From Alphaproteobacteria bacterium (GTDB taxonomy: Bacteria; Pseudomonadota; Alphaproteobacteria; CAAHEQ01; UBA3637), in contig JAZRBO010000004.1 in NCBI GenBank assembly GCA_045635125.1, positions 1 to 40,701 of the forward strand: a stretch of 40,701 nt of DNA, read 5' to 3'. Position 1 is the stretch's first letter, and every line of letters starts with the position of its first letter. The position numbers were made by a program, and so were the translations under genes. The notes under the pieces were generated by a model. The model ran no database searches and was not told the origin of the DNA. It saw only the letters and a program-made list of their open reading frames with translations. Of the stretch, positions 25,251-40,701 are shown piece by piece.

Positions 25251-25323
25251 TCAAATTTTCTGCGAAATCGCATAAAAAAAACCCCTCTCGGGGTGTTTTT
25301 TATTGGCGACCCTAACGGGATTT
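25251..25323. repeat. Direct repeat copy B: genuine tRNA-Glu 3' end plus its terminator and downstream sequence
   Basis: Same sequence as copy A, offset by 148 bp. It overlaps the intact tRNA-Glu 3' end (25304-25323). Confidence 0.85.
25274..25300 (-). terminator. Short intrinsic terminator after tRNA-Glu
   Basis: Minus strand reads ACCCC GAGA GGGGT followed by a T-run, 3 nt past the tRNA CCA end. The stem is only 5 bp. Confidence 0.45.
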
Positions 25324-25378
25324 GAACCCGTGTACCGGCCTTGAGAGGGCCGTATCCTAACCGCTAGATGATAGGGTC
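25304..25378 (-). tRNA. tRNA-Glu (anticodon CUC)
   Basis: Minus strand folds by hand: GACCCTA TC ATCT AGCGGTT AGGAT A CGGCC CTCTCAA GGCCG GTAC ACGGG TTCAAAT CCCGT TAGGGTC G CCA. The layout parallels E. coli tRNA-Glu. 75 nt. Confidence 0.88.
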
Positions 25379-25428: not shown

Positions 25429-25734
25429 TTAATCGGCAAACATTTTCTGTAATAATTGTAAAATTTGTCGATGCGTTTCCTTTGGTAGAGTCCCGATTTT
25501 TTCAATCAAAGCAGCCTTAGGCACCGCCCGTATCATATCAAGCGCAATTTGTCCCTGATGACCCTTTAAACGCACACCAACACGACATGGAAAAGCCCGT
25601 TCAACAACCGTAATGGGAGCCACAATTAAATAAGGCAAAGAGGCATTCATTTCATCCGGTGACACAACGACACAAGGCTTAGCTTTTCCACGAGAATCAC
25701 ACATAAAAACATCAAATCGTACTACCATTCCCAC
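25429..25734 (-). CDS. Type II toxin, MazF/PemK family endoribonuclease
   Basis: 101 aa with a PemK-like pattern (FDVFMCD...KPCVVVSPDEMN...LIVAPIT). It overlaps the upstream AbrB-type antitoxin gene by 13 nt. Confidence 0.75.
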   Translation of the reverse strand: MGMVVRFDVFMCDSRGKAKPCVVVSPDEMNASLPYLIVAPITVVERAFPCRVGVRLKGHQGQIALDMIRAVPKAALIEKIGTLPKETHRQILQLLQKMFAD

Positions 25735-25940
25735 TCTCCTCTTTCACGCACAGGATTTTCTTTGACATCTGCTTCAAAAGCTTGTTGCCAATCGGATCGC
25801 ACCCCTTCGGTTGGCGCCAAAACAACCTGCCCATCCACGACATTTAGCTCGGCCTCTTTTCCTAATCCGCAAGCTTGAATGACACCTTTAGGTAATCGCA
25901 CACCAACAGAGTTTCCAATTTTAATCAATTTAACCCGCAT
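25722..25940 (-). CDS. Type II antitoxin, AbrB/MazE/SpoVT fold
   Basis: 72 aa with the swapped-hairpin signature MRVKLIKIGNSVGVRLPKGVIQACGL and an acidic/Trp-rich C-terminus. Confidence 0.75.
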   Translation of the reverse strand: MRVKLIKIGNSVGVRLPKGVIQACGLGKEAELNVVDGQVVLAPTEGVRSDWQQAFEADVKENPVRERGEWEW

Positions 25941-25941
25941 T

Positions 25942-27462
25942 TTAATTTCCTTTCAACACATCGGCTAAAACCATGTATAAACGACCAGCATCTGATCCAA
26001 TAACAATGCTGAGTAACATTTTATTACTATCATCCTGACCAACTTTTTGCGTCATTTTTTCAAATGCGGCCATATATCCCTGTGCTGCTTTTTTGAAAGT
26101 TCGATCATTTTGATACAACTCTTTCATTTTTTTAGCGGTAGAAGCCCCCAACTCAGACCGAATATGACGCATAAAAATGGTTTTATCACCACCGTGATAT
26201 CGCTCCCATAAATCTTCAACAACTTTAGGAGAGAATAATTGAGCCATATCCACTGACAACGCCTGTAATTGATCTAAAATAGCCGCTGCTTCGGCCAACA
26301 TATCCTTGTTTTCAATATTGTTTAACAAAGAACGAGCCACCATACGTCGCCCCACACTTTCCATTTGTTGGTGAATTTCGTTTAAATCACCTTTCAAAGT
26401 CATTGCGGCCGACCTAAAATCTTCCGTTTGTCTGGTCAATGCTTCACCAGCATTTTCAAACTCTAAAACTGCTTGTTCAGCCGTTCCCTGTAAGCGTCTA
26501 GCACTTTCTGCCATACCGGATTCAACAACGGCAATACGATTGGCAATTTTACCAACTTCCTGATCCAATAATTCTCCTTGCGCCCGGAAAACAGATAATA
26601 CTTTTTCTAAATTACCGAATAAACGAGCATTTTGTTTATGAGCATCCGTTTCATACATATCAACAGCAGCCTCAATTTTTTGGGCAGCCACAGCCAAATT
26701 TTGCGTTGTTTGACCGGCTTGAACCGTTGCAACCCCAACCCGATTATTCACAGCCTCGATTGCATTCATTAAAGAATGTAACTGATCAGCCCGAGCGCTT
26801 AAATTTTGAGCCATTCCCTCTGTTTCAGATACACTTTGCGAGGTTACTCTTTGCAAAACAACGGCTTGTTCTGAAAATAAACGAGCCGCCTGTTGTGCTT
26901 GTTCCGTAGCACCTGCAATAGCTTCAGATAAATTTTGAATATGGCCAGCAATTTCCCGAACAGATGCCACCGTTTGAGTATCCACATGATTAATAACAGT
27001 CCCTAAATCACTAATCCAGTGCTTTAAATCATCCCGAACGGATTGTGTTTGTTCGTTTACCTCATTAAAAACACCTCTAAATTCTTGAATTTGAAGGCGT
27101 AAGGCATCTGTCAGTGTTTTAGTATAAATAGCACCTTCCTTTGTCGGATAAACTAACTCATTTAAATAACCTCTCAACGTTTCTGCTTCATCGGCTAATT
27201 GTTCAGATCTATCAAAATAAGCACTAACCAACCATACAATTAACACCGGCAAACATAATCCGCCCAATTCCCCAACAAGTTCAGCTGGTGACAATTCAGA
27301 CCGCGAAGCCCACCATCCAGATATCCTTAAATAATTGAGAACAAAAGAAAACCAAATAACACCAAACACAACAGAAATAATAAACCCCTTTTTCTGCCAA
27401 ATTGTCGGCCGAACTGGTACATCTTCTTCAAAATCAGCCTGCTTTTGATTTTTATTAGCCAT
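25942..27462 (-). CDS. Membrane-anchored coiled-coil hypothetical protein (506 aa)
   Basis: ATG 27462 is preceded by AAGGAGGG. There are two N-terminal TM helices (GFIISVVFGVIWFSFVLNYL; LGGLCLPVLIVWLVSAYF), about 300 aa of Gln/Ala/Glu-rich heptad-like sequence, and a distinct C-terminal domain. The track ORF start 27528 is not supported by an SD. Confidence 0.7.
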   Translation of the reverse strand: MANKNQKQADFEEDVPVRPTIWQKKGFIISVVFGVIWFSFVLNYLRISGWWASRSELSPAELVGELGGLCLPVLIVWLVSAYFDRSEQLADEAETLRGYLNELVYPTKEGAIYTKTLTDALRLQIQEFRGVFNEVNEQTQSVRDDLKHWISDLGTVINHVDTQTVASVREIAGHIQNLSEAIAGATEQAQQAARLFSEQAVVLQRVTSQSVSETEGMAQNLSARADQLHSLMNAIEAVNNRVGVATVQAGQTTQNLAVAAQKIEAAVDMYETDAHKQNARLFGNLEKVLSVFRAQGELLDQEVGKIANRIAVVESGMAESARRLQGTAEQAVLEFENAGEALTRQTEDFRSAAMTLKGDLNEIHQQMESVGRRMVARSLLNNIENKDMLAEAAAILDQLQALSVDMAQLFSPKVVEDLWERYHGGDKTIFMRHIRSELGASTAKKMKELYQNDRTFKKAAQGYMAAFEKMTQKVGQDDSNKMLLSIVIGSDAGRLYMVLADVLKGN

Positions 27463-27533
27463 ATGCCCTCCTTTTAAGGTGATTAATAACACCTCCACTA
27501 TAACAGACCTATTAATAAAAAGCAACACAAAAA

Positions 27534-27695
27534 ATAATTACATTGTTATTACTTTATTAATTTGTAATTACAATGTAATCACATCATGAGATCCCTCTAA
27601 ATTTCACACAACAACGTAATTACATTGTTATCATAAAAATAGAAACATAATTACAATGTAATTACACACCCATTTTGTAAATACATTGTAATTAC
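27534..27695. repeat. Array 1 of five 19-bp palindromic sites (consensus GTAATTACAWTGTAATTAC)
   Basis: Sites: 27534-27552 ataattacattgttattac; 27564-27582 gtaattacaatgtaatcac; 27616-27634 gtaattacattgttatcat; 27647-27665 ataattacaatgtaattac; 27677-27695 gtaaatacattgtaattac. Start-to-start spacings are 30, 52, 31 and 30 bp. Confidence 0.9.
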
Positions 27696-27753: not shown

Positions 27754-28782
27754 TTATCGGCGCAATCGATTTGCTCGAGCTGTAATTTGCGTCACAGTTC
27801 GACTTAAAATCAATTCCGATGGCATGCCGGTACTTTTAATCTGCTGTTCTGTTTCTAATAATAAATTCAATACCTTAACAATATATTCAACAGGCCACAT
27901 CATTATTTGACGACGCATTGTTTCTTCCAATCGAAATTGAGCGGGCTTTATTATTTTTTTTACCGCTGTATCTAATGACGCCCCCTTTCCCAATAAATCA
28001 GAAGCCGTCAACAACAAATGAAAATGCGTCAATAACAAACGAACTAACCCGACGGGATTTTCCCCATTAGACAATAATAAAGCAGCTGCTTTGTCTGCAT
28101 TTTTTTGATTTCCTTCGGCGACAGCACAACAAAATAAATCTGCTGATGTATTAACAGTATCCGTAATAACAGCAAGAACATCAGAAGCCGTCACTGTTTT
28201 CCTATCACCCAAGTAAACTATTAGTTTTTCCAACTCTCGACGGGTTGCCAATCTATTTTCACTCAACCGTTCTACCAACATCGGCATAACCTTAGGATCA
28301 ACCCCAATTCCCTCTCCTGATAAAATTTCTCTTATAAAAACAGCCACATCCTTTGATTCATCTGCATAACAAGCCACCGTTAAAATATCGGGATGAGCCT
28401 CACAAAAAGTCCGCAAAGAAGATGACTTTGTTAAATTATCAGCGGTTATCAACAAAAAAGAATCGGTTTGAATATGTGTAACAAAAGAATCTACAGCCTC
28501 CGTTGCAAAATTATCCCCGTCCCTTAAACAAATTAATCGGCGCCCTCCCATCAATAAGACGCTATTCCCCTCATCCAATAATAAACTGGGCGTTTCTCGC
28601 AATTGTGCTGGCATCACACGACAAACAGCAAAAGAATCCTTTATATCCGGCACAATCAATCCAGCAATTTTAGTGGCGGTTTCCTGCACAACACCAAAAT
28701 CGGCCCCAAAAACCAACGCCCCCTTAAATCGGCCTTGAATTTGCGGTTTTAACGCCTCTATTTGATAGGGTTTTGCTTTCAC
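27754..28782 (-). CDS. holA: DNA polymerase III delta subunit
   Basis: 342 aa. The N-terminus (ALVFGADFGVVQETATKI) and length fit HolA, and it sits in the canonical position immediately after lptE with a 4-nt overlap. Confidence 0.8.
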   Translation of the reverse strand: MKAKPYQIEALKPQIQGRFKGALVFGADFGVVQETATKIAGLIVPDIKDSFAVCRVMPAQLRETPSLLLDEGNSVLLMGGRRLICLRDGDNFATEAVDSFVTHIQTDSFLLITADNLTKSSSLRTFCEAHPDILTVACYADESKDVAVFIREILSGEGIGVDPKVMPMLVERLSENRLATRRELEKLIVYLGDRKTVTASDVLAVITDTVNTSADLFCCAVAEGNQKNADKAAALLLSNGENPVGLVRLLLTHFHLLLTASDLLGKGASLDTAVKKIIKPAQFRLEETMRRQIMMWPVEYIVKVLNLLLETEQQIKSTGMPSELILSRTVTQITARANRLRR

Positions 28783-33308: not shown

Positions 33309-34706
33309 CTATATAAAACGCCAAACAGGCCCTTGTGGTGTATCTTTTACTTCAATTCCTTGAGTAATTAACTCTTGCTTTAAAGCATCTGCCGTAGCCC
33401 AATCCTTTGCTAAACGAGCCGCCTGTCGACGGTCAATCAAATCCTGTTGAGCCGGCGTCAACGTTTGTTCTTTTTCCTTAGGAAAAACTGCTAAAACACT
33501 ATCAAATTGAGTCATAACCGATATAATAGCTTTAGCATTTTCAGAACTCAATTCAGAAAAGTGCTTATTAACTTCTGTCATAAAATCAAAAATAGAGGCG
33601 AGGGCAACCGGCACATTTAAATCATCATCCATGCCCTTTTCAAAGCCTTTGAGAGCCTTTTCCACAACAATGGGTAGGTCACCCCATCCCAATCCATTTG
33701 CTTCGTTCCTCAGGCGATTTAAAAAGTTTCCGAATTTATCAATAACCGTTTGATTGCCGGGAAGGGAGGCTTCTTGAAAATCCATCCGTTGCCGATAATG
33801 AGCTTTAATAAACTCATACCGAATAGCTTCAGCGGAATATCCTTTTTCAATTAACTCATTAAGGGTAAAACAATTTCCAAGAGATTTTGACATTTTTTTA
33901 CCGTTAACGGTAATATGTTCATTATGCATCCAATAATTCACATACTTTGAACAATAAGCGCATTCGGATTGAGCAATTTCATTTGTATGATGTGGAAAAA
34001 CCAAATCAATTCCACCGGTATGAATATCAAACGGTTGTCCGAGATATTTTTTAGACATGGCCGAACATTCAATATGCCAACCTGGACGCCCCTTTCCAAA
34101 GGGAGAGTCCCAATAATTATCCCCATCTCGCTCTTCCCATGCTTTCCAGAGAGCAAAATCCTGAGCATTTTCTTTTTCATATTCATCAGAGGACAATCGC
34201 CCATCCGCATTTAATTTTAAAGCAGAGGCATCAATACCGGCCATCTGACCATACTCAGAAAACTGGTTGATTTTAAAATAGACATCCCCTTTTTCTGTTT
34301 GATAAGCATATCCTTTATCCATTAAATGTTGTATCAATTCCAACATAGCGGGGATTTCTTCTGTCGCGCGTGGAACAATATCCGGCTTTTTAATATTTAA
34401 AGTTGTACAGTCTTTAAAGAACTCCGCCGCATAAAAATCTGTAAAATCACGCAGTCTTTTGCCTTCTTTTTGTGAATGCCGAATGGTTTTATCATCCACA
34501 TCAGTTAAATTCATACAGAACGTAACTTGATATCCCTTATAACGTAAATATCTATTCAGCAAATCATAAAATACAAAAGCACGCATATTACCGATATGGG
34601 CATAATTATAAATTGTTGGTCCACATCCATAAAAACGAACTTCATTTTCCCGAATAGGTTTAAATTCTTCTTTGCAATGTGTTGCTGTATTATAGACTTT
34701 TAACAT
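33309..34706 (-). CDS. cysS: Cysteine--tRNA ligase
   Basis: HIGH-type motif (AHIGNMRAF) and KMSKS (GKKMSKSLGN). The start is set at ATG 34706 (MLKVYNT) with GGAGAG upstream. The track ORF extends to 34754. Confidence 0.93.
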   Translation of the reverse strand: MLKVYNTATHCKEEFKPIRENEVRFYGCGPTIYNYAHIGNMRAFVFYDLLNRYLRYKGYQVTFCMNLTDVDDKTIRHSQKEGKRLRDFTDFYAAEFFKDCTTLNIKKPDIVPRATEEIPAMLELIQHLMDKGYAYQTEKGDVYFKINQFSEYGQMAGIDASALKLNADGRLSSDEYEKENAQDFALWKAWEERDGDNYWDSPFGKGRPGWHIECSAMSKKYLGQPFDIHTGGIDLVFPHHTNEIAQSECAYCSKYVNYWMHNEHITVNGKKMSKSLGNCFTLNELIEKGYSAEAIRYEFIKAHYRQRMDFQEASLPGNQTVIDKFGNFLNRLRNEANGLGWGDLPIVVEKALKGFEKGMDDDLNVPVALASIFDFMTEVNKHFSELSSENAKAIISVMTQFDSVLAVFPKEKEQTLTPAQQDLIDRRQAARLAKDWATADALKQELITQGIEVKDTPQGPVWRFI

Positions 34707-36422: not shown

Positions 36423-36438
36423 TGTTCCACATGAAACA
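36423..36438. other. parS-like centromere site 1
   Basis: TGTTCCACATGAAACA compared with the canonical TGTTTCACGTGAAACA (2 mismatches). Lies 22 nt upstream of rsmG. Confidence 0.6.
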
Positions 36439-36459: not shown

Positions 36460-37065
36460 ATGTTTCACGTGGAACAATTGGATGGTATTTTACAAAAGGC
36501 TCGTCCGAAATTGATAACTTATTTGTCACTGTTGGAACGATGGCAAAAAGCAGTTAATTTGGTTTCAAGTGCGACTTTATCGGACGCTTGGAATCGGCAT
36601 ATCGTTGATTCGGCTCAGTTATTTCCATTATTGCCTCAAGATGCAAAAACGATAATAGATATGGGGAGTGGGGCTGGATTTCCAGCATTGCTTTTGGCTA
36701 TCTTGACGCAAGTATGTTGGCAAGATCATCCTTTAGTAACGATGGTTGAAAGTGATACAAAAAAATGTTTGTTTCTGAAGGAAGTGGCTCGTCAAGTTGG
36801 TGTGTCCGTAACTATTTTAAACCAGCGTTTAGAAAAGTGTGATACACGACCGTCTGATGTTATTACAGCTCGTGCTTTAGCTCCATTAGATTGTTTGTTG
36901 GATTGGGCAAGTCCATTTTTAAAGCCGACTTCAACCTGCTTATTTTTAAAAGGTGAGGGAGTTGAAAAGGAAATTGAAGCCTTAACACATAAGGCTAATA
37001 TTGAAAAAGTACAAAGTGTAACCCATCCGAAAGGATGTATTTTAAAAGTAACGGAGGTAAGATAA
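36460..37065 (+). CDS. rsmG: 16S rRNA (guanine527-N7)-methyltransferase
   Basis: 201 aa with a SAM-binding motif (IIDMGSGAGFPALLLAI) and the conserved rsmG-parA-parB order. Confidence 0.9.
   Translation: MFHVEQLDGILQKARPKLITYLSLLERWQKAVNLVSSATLSDAWNRHIVDSAQLFPLLPQDAKTIIDMGSGAGFPALLLAILTQVCWQDHPLVTMVESDTKKCLFLKEVARQVGVSVTILNQRLEKCDTRPSDVITARALAPLDCLLDWASPFLKPTSTCLFLKGEGVEKEIEALTHKANIEKVQSVTHPKGCILKVTEVR
36461..36476. other. parS-like centromere site 2
   Basis: TGTTTCACGTGGAACA compared with the canonical TGTTTCACGTGAAACA (1 mismatch). It forms codons 1-6 of rsmG (MFHVEQ). Confidence 0.7.
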
Positions 37066-38754: not shown

Positions 38755-40077
38755 ATGGAAAATAAGGAAGATATAATTTTATCTGTTACTGAAATATCTC
38801 TTTCTTTAAAAGGATGTGTCGAACAGATTTTTGGTCATATTAAAGTTCGGGGTGAAATTTCCGGCTTAAAAAAGGCTGCTTCGGGACATACATATTTTTC
38901 TTTAAAGGATACAGATTCAGTTCTATCGGCTGTTTGTTGGCGTGGTCGAAGTGAATCTACTCAAGCGGCATTGCAAGAAGGGTTAGAGGTTGTTTGTACA
39001 GGGAAATTATCAACATACCCAGGACGGTCAAATTACCAGATGATTGTGGAAACCGTTGAACCGTCGGGGGAGGGGGCTCTGTTAAAACTTCTCAAAGAAA
39101 GAAAAGAAAAACTTGAAAAAGAAGGGCTTTTTGATATTTCTAAAAAAAAGAAAATTCCTTATTTACCTGAAGTTATTGGTGTGGTCACAAGCCCTTCTGG
39201 TGCTGTTATTCGAGATATTATGCATCGATTACAGGATCGTTTTCCTCGTCCTGTTTTGCTTTGGCCTGTGTTGGTTCAAGGCGTTGGAGCTGCTGAGCAA
39301 ATTGCTCGTGCAATTCAGGGATTTAATCAAATTCCTAAAGAAGGTCTTATCACCCCGACAGGGATTGTATATCGTCCGGATGTTTTGATTGTTGCCCGTG
39401 GTGGCGGTAGCTTAGAAGATTTGTGGTGTTTTAATGAGGAAATAGTCGTTCGTGCAGTTGCTGCTTCTGATATACCGATTATTTCGGCTGTCGGACATGA
39501 AACAGATACGACATTAATCGATTATACGGCCGATTTAAGAGCGCCAACACCAACAGGCGCTGCTGAAAAAGCTGTTCCTGTTCGTAGTGAATTACAAATT
39601 CAATTACAAGGTTTTCAAAATCGTTTAATGGATGCTTCTTATCGTTTGTGTGAAGAACAAAAAATACGATTAACGGGATTGTCTCGTTCTTTACCGAATT
39701 TATCTGAGGTTGTTGACCGTTTTATTCAAAAGCTTGATGATCGTTCGGAGCGGTTAGAACAATCGTTTCAGGTTTTCATTTGCCTGATTCAAAATAAATT
39801 GGAAACTCTTTCTAAGTTATTGAAATCATATTCATATCGTTCGATTTTAGAGCGTGGTTTTGCCCTTATTTCAGGGACCTCAGGAAAAATAATCGGTAAG
39901 TCGCAGGATGCGCAGGCTGAAAAACGGCTTAAAATCATGTTTGCAGATGGGAGCCTTTCGGTCATTCCTGAAAAAAAGGAGTCAAAATTGAAAAAAGTAT
40001 CCTCATGTTTATCTGAAGAATCCAAAAAGAAAAAAGAAGATTTATCAATTGATAGTCAGCCAAACTTATTTGATTAA
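38755..40077 (+). CDS. xseA: Exodeoxyribonuclease VII large subunit
   Basis: N-terminal OB fold (VRGEISGLKKAASGHTYFSLKD), catalytic region (VARGGGSLEDLWCFNEE, SAVGHETDTTLIDYTADLRAPTPTGAAE) and a coiled C-terminus. Confidence 0.9.
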   Translation: MENKEDIILSVTEISLSLKGCVEQIFGHIKVRGEISGLKKAASGHTYFSLKDTDSVLSAVCWRGRSESTQAALQEGLEVVCTGKLSTYPGRSNYQMIVETVEPSGEGALLKLLKERKEKLEKEGLFDISKKKKIPYLPEVIGVVTSPSGAVIRDIMHRLQDRFPRPVLLWPVLVQGVGAAEQIARAIQGFNQIPKEGLITPTGIVYRPDVLIVARGGGSLEDLWCFNEEIVVRAVAASDIPIISAVGHETDTTLIDYTADLRAPTPTGAAEKAVPVRSELQIQLQGFQNRLMDASYRLCEEQKIRLTGLSRSLPNLSEVVDRFIQKLDDRSERLEQSFQVFICLIQNKLETLSKLLKSYSYRSILERGFALISGTSGKIIGKSQDAQAEKRLKIMFADGSLSVIPEKKESKLKKVSSCLSEESKKKKEDLSIDSQPNLFD

Positions 40078-40087
40078 TTGAAAGGAA

Positions 40088-40269
40088 GTAATTACAATGG
40101 AATTACAAAATAAGAGATGTAATTACAAGGTAATTACATTGTTAAAAAAGGCGTTGTTTTCTCTTTCTGTGTATGTCGGGAGGAGAGTATGTGATTACAA
40201 TGTGATTACCTATAAAAAATGTAATTACAAAGTAATTACTTTGCTTAAATGTATATACATTGTAATTAT
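40088..40269. repeat. Array 2 of five 19-bp palindromic sites (same consensus as array 1)
   Basis: Sites: 40088-40106 gtaattacaatggaattac; 40119-40137 gtaattacaaggtaattac (with an extra overlapping half-site running on to 40144); 40191-40209 gtgattacaatgtgattac; 40221-40239 gtaattacaaagtaattac; 40251-40269 gtatatacattgtaattat. Spacings are 31, 72, 30 and 30 bp. Confidence 0.9.
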
Positions 40270-40336
40270 ATTTTTGTTGTTAGGATGTCGGATAGGATAT
40301 GCTTTTGAATTATTAACCCCTGTTCAGGAGGGGCAA

Positions 40337-40701
40337 TTGATTTATGGAAAGTTACATTCTGATGAAAAATTATATATAGATTATAGTTTGTTAAATATTG
40401 ATATTAATTTATTGAATAAAGATAATCGATTGCATGATTATCGCAATTCTATTCAAAAGATGCAGCCAGATAGAACAGCTGGTGAGAAAGGTGGACGTTT
40501 AACGGATAATAAGTCTGATTTGACTGATATTATTTTGAAAGATGGTCCTACGTCATATGAAAAAGAACGGGAGAATAGGATTCAGAGTCAAGAAAAAGAG
40601 AAAGAAGATTTGTTTGATAAATATGAAATAGAAGCAGATTCATTCGGTAATTTTGTTTTAGGGGTGCCTCAAAATGCTCCAGAAACGTTAATCTTATATT
40701 T
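40337..40701 (+). CDS. Hypothetical protein, 5' part only (runs off the window), probable TTG start
   Basis: The frame is open from 40337 to the window end (hand translated as LIYGKLHSDEKLYIDYSLLNIDINLL...GVPQNAPETLILY). AGGAGG (40326-40331) lies 5 nt before TTG 40337. It is not in the ORF track because no stop lies within the window. Confidence 0.45.
   Translation, partial: MIYGKLHSDEKLYIDYSLLNIDINLLNKDNRLHDYRNSIQKMQPDRTAGEKGGRLTDNKSDLTDIILKDGPTSYEKERENRIQSQEKEKEDLFDKYEIEADSFGNFVLGVPQNAPETLILY

Follow-up and report, generated by a model that had tools for sequence, protein, structure and literature searches.

Two arrays of a 19-bp palindrome, five copies in each, are carried by a 40,701-nucleotide stretch of DNA (hereafter the window) from an Alphaproteobacteria bacterium (GenBank assembly GCA_045635125.1, contig JAZRBO010000004.1). 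Array 1 is non-coding and lies upstream of the predicted promoter of an operon that encodes a 506-residue protein (p506) and a MazE-MazF type toxin-antitoxin pair. Array 2 lies downstream of xseA, within the translated 5′ end of a gene for an M23 family metallopeptidase. The palindromes are real and conserved, and are putative protein-binding sites. At a probability of roughly one half, they are read here as operators of one oligomerising repressor, which would occlude the -35 element at p506 and form a roadblock to RNA polymerase at the peptidase gene.

The repeated unit, GTAATTAC-N3-GTAATTAC, departs from its consensus at 1, 0, 2, 0 and 3 positions in sites 1 to 5 of array 2 (coordinates in Table 1), and these sites are spaced 31, 72, 30 and 30 bp apart, exactly as an earlier note on this DNA had claimed. 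The clustering is non-random: with three mismatches or fewer allowed, 11 matches occur in the window, compared with 0.29 expected from dinucleotide-preserving shuffles (maximum 2). Ten of these matches make up the two arrays, and the eleventh (27553) is a shadow within array 1, shifted by 11 bp. Exact copies of the GTAATTAC octamer number nine in 40.7 kb, every one of them inside an array, where 0.70 would be expected. The view of the earlier note that a single cis-element has been placed at two unrelated genes is borne out.

From 51 sites in related genomes a weight matrix was derived, which refines the unit to two 10-bp palindromes, TGTAATTACA (T-GTAATTAC-A), set 11 bp apart. The central triplet of the site consists of A and T only; across 83 sites it is ATT in 21, AAT in 21, TTT in 21 and AAA in 11. 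The offsets of the half-units run 0, 11, about 31, about 42 bp and so on, which places them on one face of the helix with a pitch between pairs of about three helical turns. The spacings of non-coding arrays cluster at 28-34 bp, where 31 and 32 are as common as 30, and the conserved arrays hold 2-8 sites. Matches of at least 12 bits occur almost solely within arrays in loci of the clade, with 6 in 1.2 Mb of unrelated loci, and the matrix detects no further arrays in about 350 kb of clade DNA outside the known ones. In the window species, each array has one longer gap (40138-40190, 53 nt; 27583-27615, 33 nt). The 53-nt gap is common to the window and the M23 orthologue P0103, and the two gaps have no significant similarity to each other.

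Mismatches are compensated between the halves of a site in 3 of 179 cases, and within halves in 21 of 153, mostly as GTATATAC. Because the motif is kept in arrays that cannot be translated, its centre is confined to A and T, and its mismatches go uncompensated, the constraint on the sites is, on these patterns of change, one on DNA sequence and not on structure or peptide. An element working in RNA, whether by folding the M23 mRNA at its 5′ end or as clustered ACA or UACAU-type cleavage sites for the MazF encoded nearby, is a distinctly improbable explanation. The RNA of array 2 is predicted to fold at -57.6 kcal/mol (z = -7.9), each site contains ACA, those centred on ATT contain UACAU, which is a motif of some MazF toxins, and mazF is conserved in the p506 operon. 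However, a strong fold is the automatic outcome of repeated palindromes and no compensatory changes accompany it, while a dyad of 19-21 bp far exceeds what a MazF site needs. The predicted p506 promoter is downstream of array 1, which is hence outside the p506 mRNA, and a search of the window against Rfam returned two tRNAs only, with the array unmatched.

Several familiar classes of repeat were considered and set aside. Clustered regularly interspaced short palindromic repeats (CRISPR) have repeats of 23-47 bp and spacers of similar length; here the repeat is 19 bp and the spacer 11 bp, there are no cas genes and the array lies within an open reading frame (ORF). CtrA boxes (TTAA-N7-TTAA(C)) have only the 11-bp pitch in common with the consensus, which contains no TTAA. 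Transposon ends do not account for the pair of arrays, since housekeeping genes fill the interval between them and the arrangement is not the same from one species to the next. Start-stop mini-ORFs (ATG-TGA/TAA) at the sites were also dropped as a feature, as an A before TGTAA inherently yields ATG-TAA.

Array 2 in the M23 peptidase gene

The gene downstream of array 2, which the earlier note had marked for identification, encodes an M23 family metallopeptidase, as found by tblastn with the M23 protein of the related genome L015. Its frame begins at ATG 40097, within site 1 and 20 nt past the stop codon of xseA, and stays open across the entire array. A Shine-Dalgarno (SD)-like AAGGAAG (40082-40088) precedes this ATG, and the orthologue P0103 was gene-called from the equivalent codon. 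In this frame the sites are translated as N-Y-[K/N/I/F]-V-I-T, in the long n-region of a signal peptide that ends at about G-Y-A|F-E-L-L, and codons for the mature part begin near 40304.

The earlier note had instead placed the gene start at TTG 40337, behind what it took for a very strong SD, AGGAGGGG. The frame upstream of this TTG reads ...C-R-I-G-Y-A-F-E-L-L-T-P-V-Q-E-G-Q-L-I-Y-G, and the motif F-x-x-x-(T/S)-P-(V/L)-x-(E/D)-G-x-L-x-(Y/F)-G is kept in all relatives. The proposed start site thus falls inside conserved coding sequence, where the TTG is a leucine codon that appears as CTT, CTG or TTA in six of seven relatives and as TTG in L005 only. An SD and start codon at this position were rejected on both counts.

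The same note had extended this start into a model in which both arrays are non-coding operators, each leading into a T-rich element, a roughly 70-nt leader, an SD and a start codon, as two copies of one cassette. The part concerning array 1 stands: an SD and ATG 27462 follow an untranslated leader there. For array 2, which is coding, the model fails, and as an account of both loci it is scarcely credible. A weak TTGTTG-18-TATGCT can be seen by eye after array 2 in the window, but it is not conserved in relatives, a protein begun at TTG 40337 would have no signal peptide, and the frame through the M23 array is open in every genome with a pitch of 3n. The promoter-proximal architecture is therefore not the same at the two genes, since array 1 is upstream of a -35/-10 pair, SD and ATG and array 2 is downstream of the M23 start. 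Likewise, the T-rich element said to be shared is a run into the -35 at array 1 and codons for I-I-F-L-L-L at array 2, and the likeness of the gene-proximal ends stops at the last site and a richness in T. No similarity exists outside the sites that would indicate a copied cassette. When the two regions were aligned, the scores of the long gaps and of the gene-proximal ends were matched by 1039 and 846 of 2000 shuffles, respectively.

Reading frame and spacing distinguish the M23 arrays from the others. All 11 of them (window, L002-L007, L015, L213, L214 and L217) have one stop-free frame that runs into M23. Among the non-coding arrays, those of at least five sites have stops in three frames, and the shortest (L001, L201) keep one open. 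As GTAATTAC includes TAA, two of the three registers of a full site are closed by a stop. Spacings divisible by three make up 25 of 28 in the M23 arrays, mostly of exactly 30 bp, compared with 8 of 23 in the non-coding arrays, and two of the three exceptions involve first sites that carry the start codon. The genomes are phylogenetically related, so the trials behind these spacing and open-frame counts are not independent, which counts against the proposed reading alongside the points collected further below.

Array 2 DNA is therefore best described as putative binding sites and protein code at once, a double constraint from which the strict 30-bp (10-codon) pitch and the N-Y-x-V-I-T decapeptide repeats would follow. 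Since the arrays differ between genomes in copy number and spacer sequence, these comparisons imply repeated gain and loss of 30-bp units. In the second half-site of site 1, the same base has changed from T to G in the window and from T to A in L015, and either change removes the start-stop ATG-TAA of the consensus.

In L002-L007 the xseA stop codon shares bases with the ATG, ahead of which stands AAGGAG, and in L214 and L217 the M23 gene likewise starts at an ATG at the end of xseA. A TTG takes the place of the window's ATG in L015, and L213 has a strong SD and ATG in mid-array. No ATG, GTG or TTG lies between the upstream ATG and the hydrophobic core in L003, so that a shorter pre-protein with a signal peptide is not possible there. 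There is no real intergenic region at M23, as the start codon lies at or just past the xseA stop. No conserved promoter within or after array 2 was found in the relatives, and no terminator-like site was found between xseA and array 2; the only such site nearby on the plus strand lies within the M23 frame, downstream of the array.

The repeats are widespread in the protein. About 60 of 120 public M23 orthologues are called as long ORFs of 290-410 residues, and their N-termini hold 2-8 copies of N-Y-[K/N/I/F]-V-I-T, mostly 10 residues apart. The last copy, Y-Y-I-V-I-T, lies within the hydrophobic core, ahead of a cleavage-type motif A-x-[ST/A]. In L006, L007 and L217, with only two sites, the signal peptide is of ordinary length. 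Searches for other genes with embedded arrays gave no candidates with a synthetic N-Y-K-V-I-T repeat in a word-indexed protein search, and an exhaustive HMMER search with the N-terminal 69 residues of the window protein recovered only the close orthologue P0103.

Selection on the peptide, with a tandem repeat that functions in the pre-protein and DNA palindromy that is incidental, would account for the open frame and for the repeats in more than 60 diverse orthologues. It is nonetheless very improbable, given that the same DNA motif is kept in arrays that cannot be translated. The central residue is K, N, I or F, as a triplet of A and T alone predicts, and the copy number ranges from 2 to 8. 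Moreover, short-form M23 proteins encoded in other genomic contexts in related bacteria (L211, L212) have a plain lipoprotein signal peptide with neither sites nor repeats.

Array 1, the p506-mazE-mazF operon and conservation

Array 1 has stop codons in all three frames, and no terminator-like site lies between it and holA. The -35 of the predicted p506 promoter starts 8 nt past the proximal site, and AAGGAGGG followed by ATG (27462) lies downstream of the -35/-10 pair. This layout, in which the last site is followed by 3-8 nt that are often T-rich, then TTGnnn, 17 nt and TAnnnT, is conserved in 10 genomes (window, L004, L005, L015, L201, L202, L208 and L215-L217).

The order p506-mazE-mazF is kept in all 11 genomes that have p506, namely these 10 and L205, and 10 of the 11 have the array upstream. 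The mazE start lies 1 nt past the p506 stop codon. The three genes form a translationally coupled, vertically inherited tricistron, in which MazE and MazF identities fall in step with that of p506; this is an uncommon mode of inheritance for toxin-antitoxin pairs, whose usual distribution is patchy and mobile. A sequence search of the PDB with p506 returned nothing. Just downstream of mazF, a minus-strand tRNA-Glu gene (25304-25378) has a second copy of its 3′ end and terminator at a distance of 150 bp, with 79-97% identity (25103-25173, 25251-25323), in what looks like an att-type integration scar.

Arrays accompany p506 and M23 in 15 related genomes, down to 31% p506 identity and through rearrangements of synteny, which upholds the proposal of a shared regulon: one sequence-specific regulator is very probably common to both loci. 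The array upstream of p506 is found where p506 follows holA (window, L004, L005, L015 and L201) and where it follows miaA (L202, L208 and L215-L217), and it therefore tracks p506 and not the neighborhood. In the L205-L207 lineage, the region upstream of p506 (L205, 5824-5924) has a promoter-like TTGATT-17-TAAAAT and no trace of the motif, and a different 10-bp palindrome, CTTTATAAAG, lies beside the SD.

Orphan arrays also occur. They follow holA in the absence of p506 in L001 (3640-3700) and L002 (3530-3615), lie between convergent miaA and parB in L006 (4437-4592) and L007 (5091-5249), with four site positions common to both, and sit between xseA and greA in L208 (3120-3200), where the sites are degenerate. 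One frame of the L208 orphan still resembles a decayed M23 signal peptide and ends in a stop. Because this array is visibly a decaying M23 5′ end, the orphans are read as remnants of gene loss.

A repeat unconnected with gene control, whether selfish, of the repetitive extragenic palindromic (REP) or bacterial interspersed mosaic element (BIME) kind, or a chromosome-organising set of sites that is parS-like or linked to the origin, would suit two of these facts. Every array seen is no further than roughly 2-25 kb from parS/parAB, and orphans stand between convergent genes in L001, L006 and L007. Nevertheless, the window and each of the seven relatives whose sequence covers the region have canonical parS pairs (TGTTTCACGTGAAACA) elsewhere, upstream of rsmG, and parS itself was discarded as an identity for the sites. 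Arrays move with p506 and M23 when synteny changes, two occur in 40.7 kb and none elsewhere in about 350 kb of clade DNA, the L208 orphan derives from an M23 gene, and collections of plasmids and phages contain no similarity to the array. REP and BIME elements were rejected as well, there being two arrays only, 3 of 179 mismatches compensated and one array intragenic. Such explanations can be given very little credence.

Among the matches listed in a metagenome-wide scan with a 16-base motif, all came from environmental contigs, as single chance matches or minisatellites, and none from a contig of the clade. The minisatellites have an 11-bp period on the GTAATTAC octamer, for example (GGTAATTACC)n and (AGTAATTACT)n (contigs L122, L128, L162, L167, L170, L187 and L198). 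Having no 30-bp phasing and no link to the clade, they are probably unrelated tandem repeats.

Table 1. Coordinates of the two arrays and of the genes and signals around them in the window.
Feature	Position	Strand	Remarks
mazF/PemK-type toxin gene	25429-25734	-	Overlaps mazE; PF02452, E = 4e-17
mazE-like antitoxin gene (72 aa)	25722-25940	-	AbrB/SpoVT-type N-terminus; PF04014, E = 1e-4, under the curated cut-off
p506 (506 residues)	25942-27462	-	N-terminal membrane segment, long coiled coil, weak MamY_C (PF26389) match
Predicted sigma-70-type p506 promoter	27497-27525	-	TTGCTT (27525-27520), 17 nt, TATAGT (27502-27497)
Array 1	27534-27695		Sites at 27534, 27564, 27616, 27647, 27677; non-coding, between holA and the p506 promoter
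holA	27754-28782	-	Beyond array 1, on the side opposite p506
xseA (exonuclease VII large subunit)	38755-40077	+	Upstream of M23, co-directional
Array 2	40088-40269		Five sites, as below
Array 2 site 1	40088-40106		GTAATTACAATGGAATTAC; holds the M23 start codon, ATG 40097-40099
Array 2 site 2	40119-40137		Perfect match; 29.6 bits; read as C-N-Y-K-V-I-T
Array 2 site 3	40191-40209		GTGATTACAATGTGATTAC; 25.1 bits
Array 2 site 4	40221-40239		Perfect match; 32.0 bits
Array 2 site 5	40251-40269		GTATATACATTGTAATTAT; 24.1 bits; I-Y-I-V-I-I, opens the hydrophobic signal-peptide core
M23 family metallopeptidase gene, 5′ part	40097-40701	+	Runs past the window edge
AGGAGGGG-caa-TTG	40327-40339	+	Coding (Q-E-G-Q-L); not an SD and start codon

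Proposed mechanism, candidate binders and related systems

According to the proposed reading, one sequence-specific protein would bind both arrays and assemble along one face of the helix. At p506 the bound protein would occlude the -35/UP (upstream element) region, where the proximal site ends 3-8 bp from the -35. The M23 gene would be co-transcribed with xseA, and the bound array would block RNA polymerase arriving from xseA just past the complete xseA gene, which would uncouple the peptidase from the housekeeping gene. Co-transcription and a roadblock are proposed because all sites lie downstream of the M23 start, no conserved promoter was found and no terminator precedes the array.

The binder would be a protein that reads DNA with a β-sheet (of the AbrB/MazE or ribbon-helix-helix type), bound as a dimer of dimers, as suggested by the shortness of the palindromic unit. 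Half-sites 5 bp apart are a better fit for a two-fold β-sheet in one major groove than for helix-turn-helix dimers. The most concrete candidate is MazE, bridged by dimers of MazF, and this assignment is tentative, at somewhat less than even odds. In its favor, mazE lies within the operon behind array 1 in all 11 genomes with p506, and its N-terminal segment, K-L-x-K-I-G-N-S-x-G-V-R-L-P-K, aligns with that of Escherichia coli MazE. The E. coli MazE site 'c', GTATCTACAATGTAGATTG, is identical to the consensus at 13 of 19 positions, and may be set beside the proximal site of L217, GTATCTACATTGTATCTAT. Dimers of E. coli MazE bind three short palindromic sites, and MazE and MazF form alternating chains (PMC4333400). 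In relO, two dimers of E. coli RelB bind 12 bp apart and read TTGTAATTACAA (PMC2812701). A literature search for TGTAATTACA gave, primers aside, the E. coli relBE operator and an unrelated oligonucleotide in a paper on DriD.

Several observations weigh against the proposed reading or its candidate binder. On the weight matrix, E. coli site 'c' scores 2.7 bits, a value reached by 87 of 5000 shuffles (p about 0.02). The mazE gene is the second of its operon, with the 1.5 kb of p506 between it and the array. Array and mazEF co-occur in 10 genomes, and in the L205-L207 lineage (38% p506 identity) p506-mazEF is kept with the same MazE N-terminus and no array. The p506 promoter is a consensus match whose window copy was missed by an automatic scan, and species differ by 5 bp, or half a helical turn, in the gap between the proximal site and the -35. 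Repression as opposed to activation is read from the position of the sites alone, and an array upstream of the -35 is also a classic activator or Lrp-type layout. Finally, the orphan arrays could have another role, for which the shared positions in L006 and L007 leave room.

The binder is no less likely to be an unlinked regulator, of an Lrp/AsnC-like or ribbon-helix-helix kind, than to be MazE. In its fullest form this alternative supposes that an unlinked Lrp/AsnC or other oligomeric regulator wraps the DNA and activates or remodels the p506 promoter, with the M23 array, although coding, serving the same protein as a platform for binding and MazE uninvolved. The position of array 1, wholly upstream of the -35, agrees with it, as do the non-coding pitch of 30-32 bp, or about three helical turns, the phasing of AT-rich dyads, and the existence of a lineage with mazEF and without the array. 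The 13-bp core ATTAC-WWW-GTAAT also has a 5-3-5 form that is presumably that of Lrp/AsnC-family sites. Yet neither the window nor the surroundings of any array, in about 350 kb of related loci, yielded a gene for an Lrp/AsnC or other regulator, and the 5-bp spacing of half-sites in the 10-bp palindrome would be unusual for helix-turn-helix dimers. At M23, all sites are downstream of the start codon, where no conserved promoter is available to an activator. This alternative is possible, if on the unlikely side.

The proposed repressor arrays can be compared with several known systems. Operators of type II toxin-antitoxin modules (E. coli mazEF 'cab', relBE relO and F-plasmid ccdAB) resemble them in that they are short AT-rich palindromes, each bound by one antitoxin dimer, with neighboring dimers 11-16 bp apart and toxin dimers that bridge the antitoxin dimers into cooperative chains (PMC4333400). 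The mazEF pair in the operon behind array 1 adds to the likeness. However, the known operators overlap the core promoter (-35/-10/+1), cover about 25-115 bp and directly precede the antitoxin gene. The arrays described here end 3-8 nt upstream of the -35 and have a pitch of about 30 bp, a further mark against MazE as the binder, and the second, larger array lies within an unrelated gene, at which MazE binding is putative.

Intragenic roadblock operators are known for PurR at purB, for lac O2 and for CodY and CcpA. Like array 2, they lie in frame downstream of a start codon, and array 2 would stop the elongating polymerase as they do, but they consist of one or two sites in ordinary coding sequence. 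The M23 arrays have 2-8 tandem sites that give rise to decapeptide repeats, in a dispensable part of a signal peptide at an operon junction. Phased arrays of the Lrp/AsnC and NrdR types are palindromic, recur every 30-32 bp or so on one helix face and vary in copy number. NrdR boxes occur in twos, at nrd genes; no gene for such a regulator was found near the arrays here, and each site is a pair of 10-bp palindromes.

The heptads of the Omega repressor and the iterons of ParR are contiguous plasmid repeats of 7-11 bp, read by small β-sheet repressors that are encoded with a toxin-antitoxin or partition module and bind tandem arrays at several promoters. These features are shared with the proposed system, in which the repeats are instead chromosomal 19-bp dyads with a 30-bp pitch. 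Extended signal peptides, such as the extended signal peptide region (ESPR) of autotransporters, have an unusually long n-region before a normal hydrophobic core and cleavage site, as the M23 protein does. The ESPR is a conserved peptide motif, whereas the extension described here would be a variable-copy by-product of DNA sites.

Genomic setting and significance

The window encodes RNase E, an AmiC-type amidase, a CcrM-type methylase, dnaE, thrS, ptsN, holA, lptE, miaA, rho, radC, map, cysS, dnaQ, rsmG, parA, parB and xseA, among others. The closest relatives are metagenome-assembled genomes named 'Alphaproteobacteria bacterium' from the human gut and rumen, with CysS 73-84% identical, and the lineage is uncultured and represented by such assemblies only. 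An exact look-up of the XseA protein found no entry on record. The near-canonical parS pair of the window (36423-36438 and 36461-36476) lies upstream of and just into the rsmG start, and the minimum of the cumulative GC skew falls at 34-36 kb, near the gap between divergent cysS and dnaQ. The window is probably an origin-proximal region with the replication origin close by.

Two further observations concern other genes. CysS (33309-34706, minus strand) belongs to the archaeal type; among 185,579 species genomes, its best relatives beyond the clade are in Woesearchaeota and Bathyarchaeia, at about 50% identity, and not in other Alphaproteobacteria, which suggests that cysS was replaced horizontally. 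Two plus-strand ORFs between dnaE and thrS (15734-16912 and 16922-18697, 392 and 591 residues) adjoin each other and match no Pfam family, save that the second has a faint resemblance to HNH.

Arrays of operators, roadblocks within genes and the operators of toxin-antitoxin pairs each have precedents, and what is new is their combination. A multi-site array placed in the translated n-region of a signal peptide, with the signatures of dual constraint, is new, as is, for an uncultured gut lineage, the putative two-locus regulon in which a peptidoglycan endopeptidase joins a MamY_C-like membrane protein and mazEF genes that are inherited vertically. The analysis supplies a clean cis-element, and a putative regulon of three or four genes at two loci, for a gut and rumen alphaproteobacterial lineage without cultured members or known regulators. 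It also offers an unusually clear natural case of doubly constrained DNA, with a 3n pitch, substitutions that avoid stops, a passenger decapeptide repeat and variable copy number. For annotation there is a caution: a textbook-looking SD and start codon turned out to be coding, and repeat-rich N-termini of peptidases are not artefacts of gene calling.

If the binder is MazE/MazF, a toxin-antitoxin pair would be linked to the control of a cell-wall hydrolase. In a stronger and more speculative version, which is rather doubtful at present, domestication has made a transcriptional switch of a MazE-MazF pair that is inherited vertically: chains of antitoxin and toxin dimers would bind the paired palindromes both at their own operon and in the signal-peptide region of M23, with a regulated roadblock between xseA and the peptidase. 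Were this true, an operator array written into translated sequence would force a 10-codon repeat on the protein, and loss of the antitoxin under stress would free the cell-wall hydrolase, the membrane coiled-coil protein and the toxin together.

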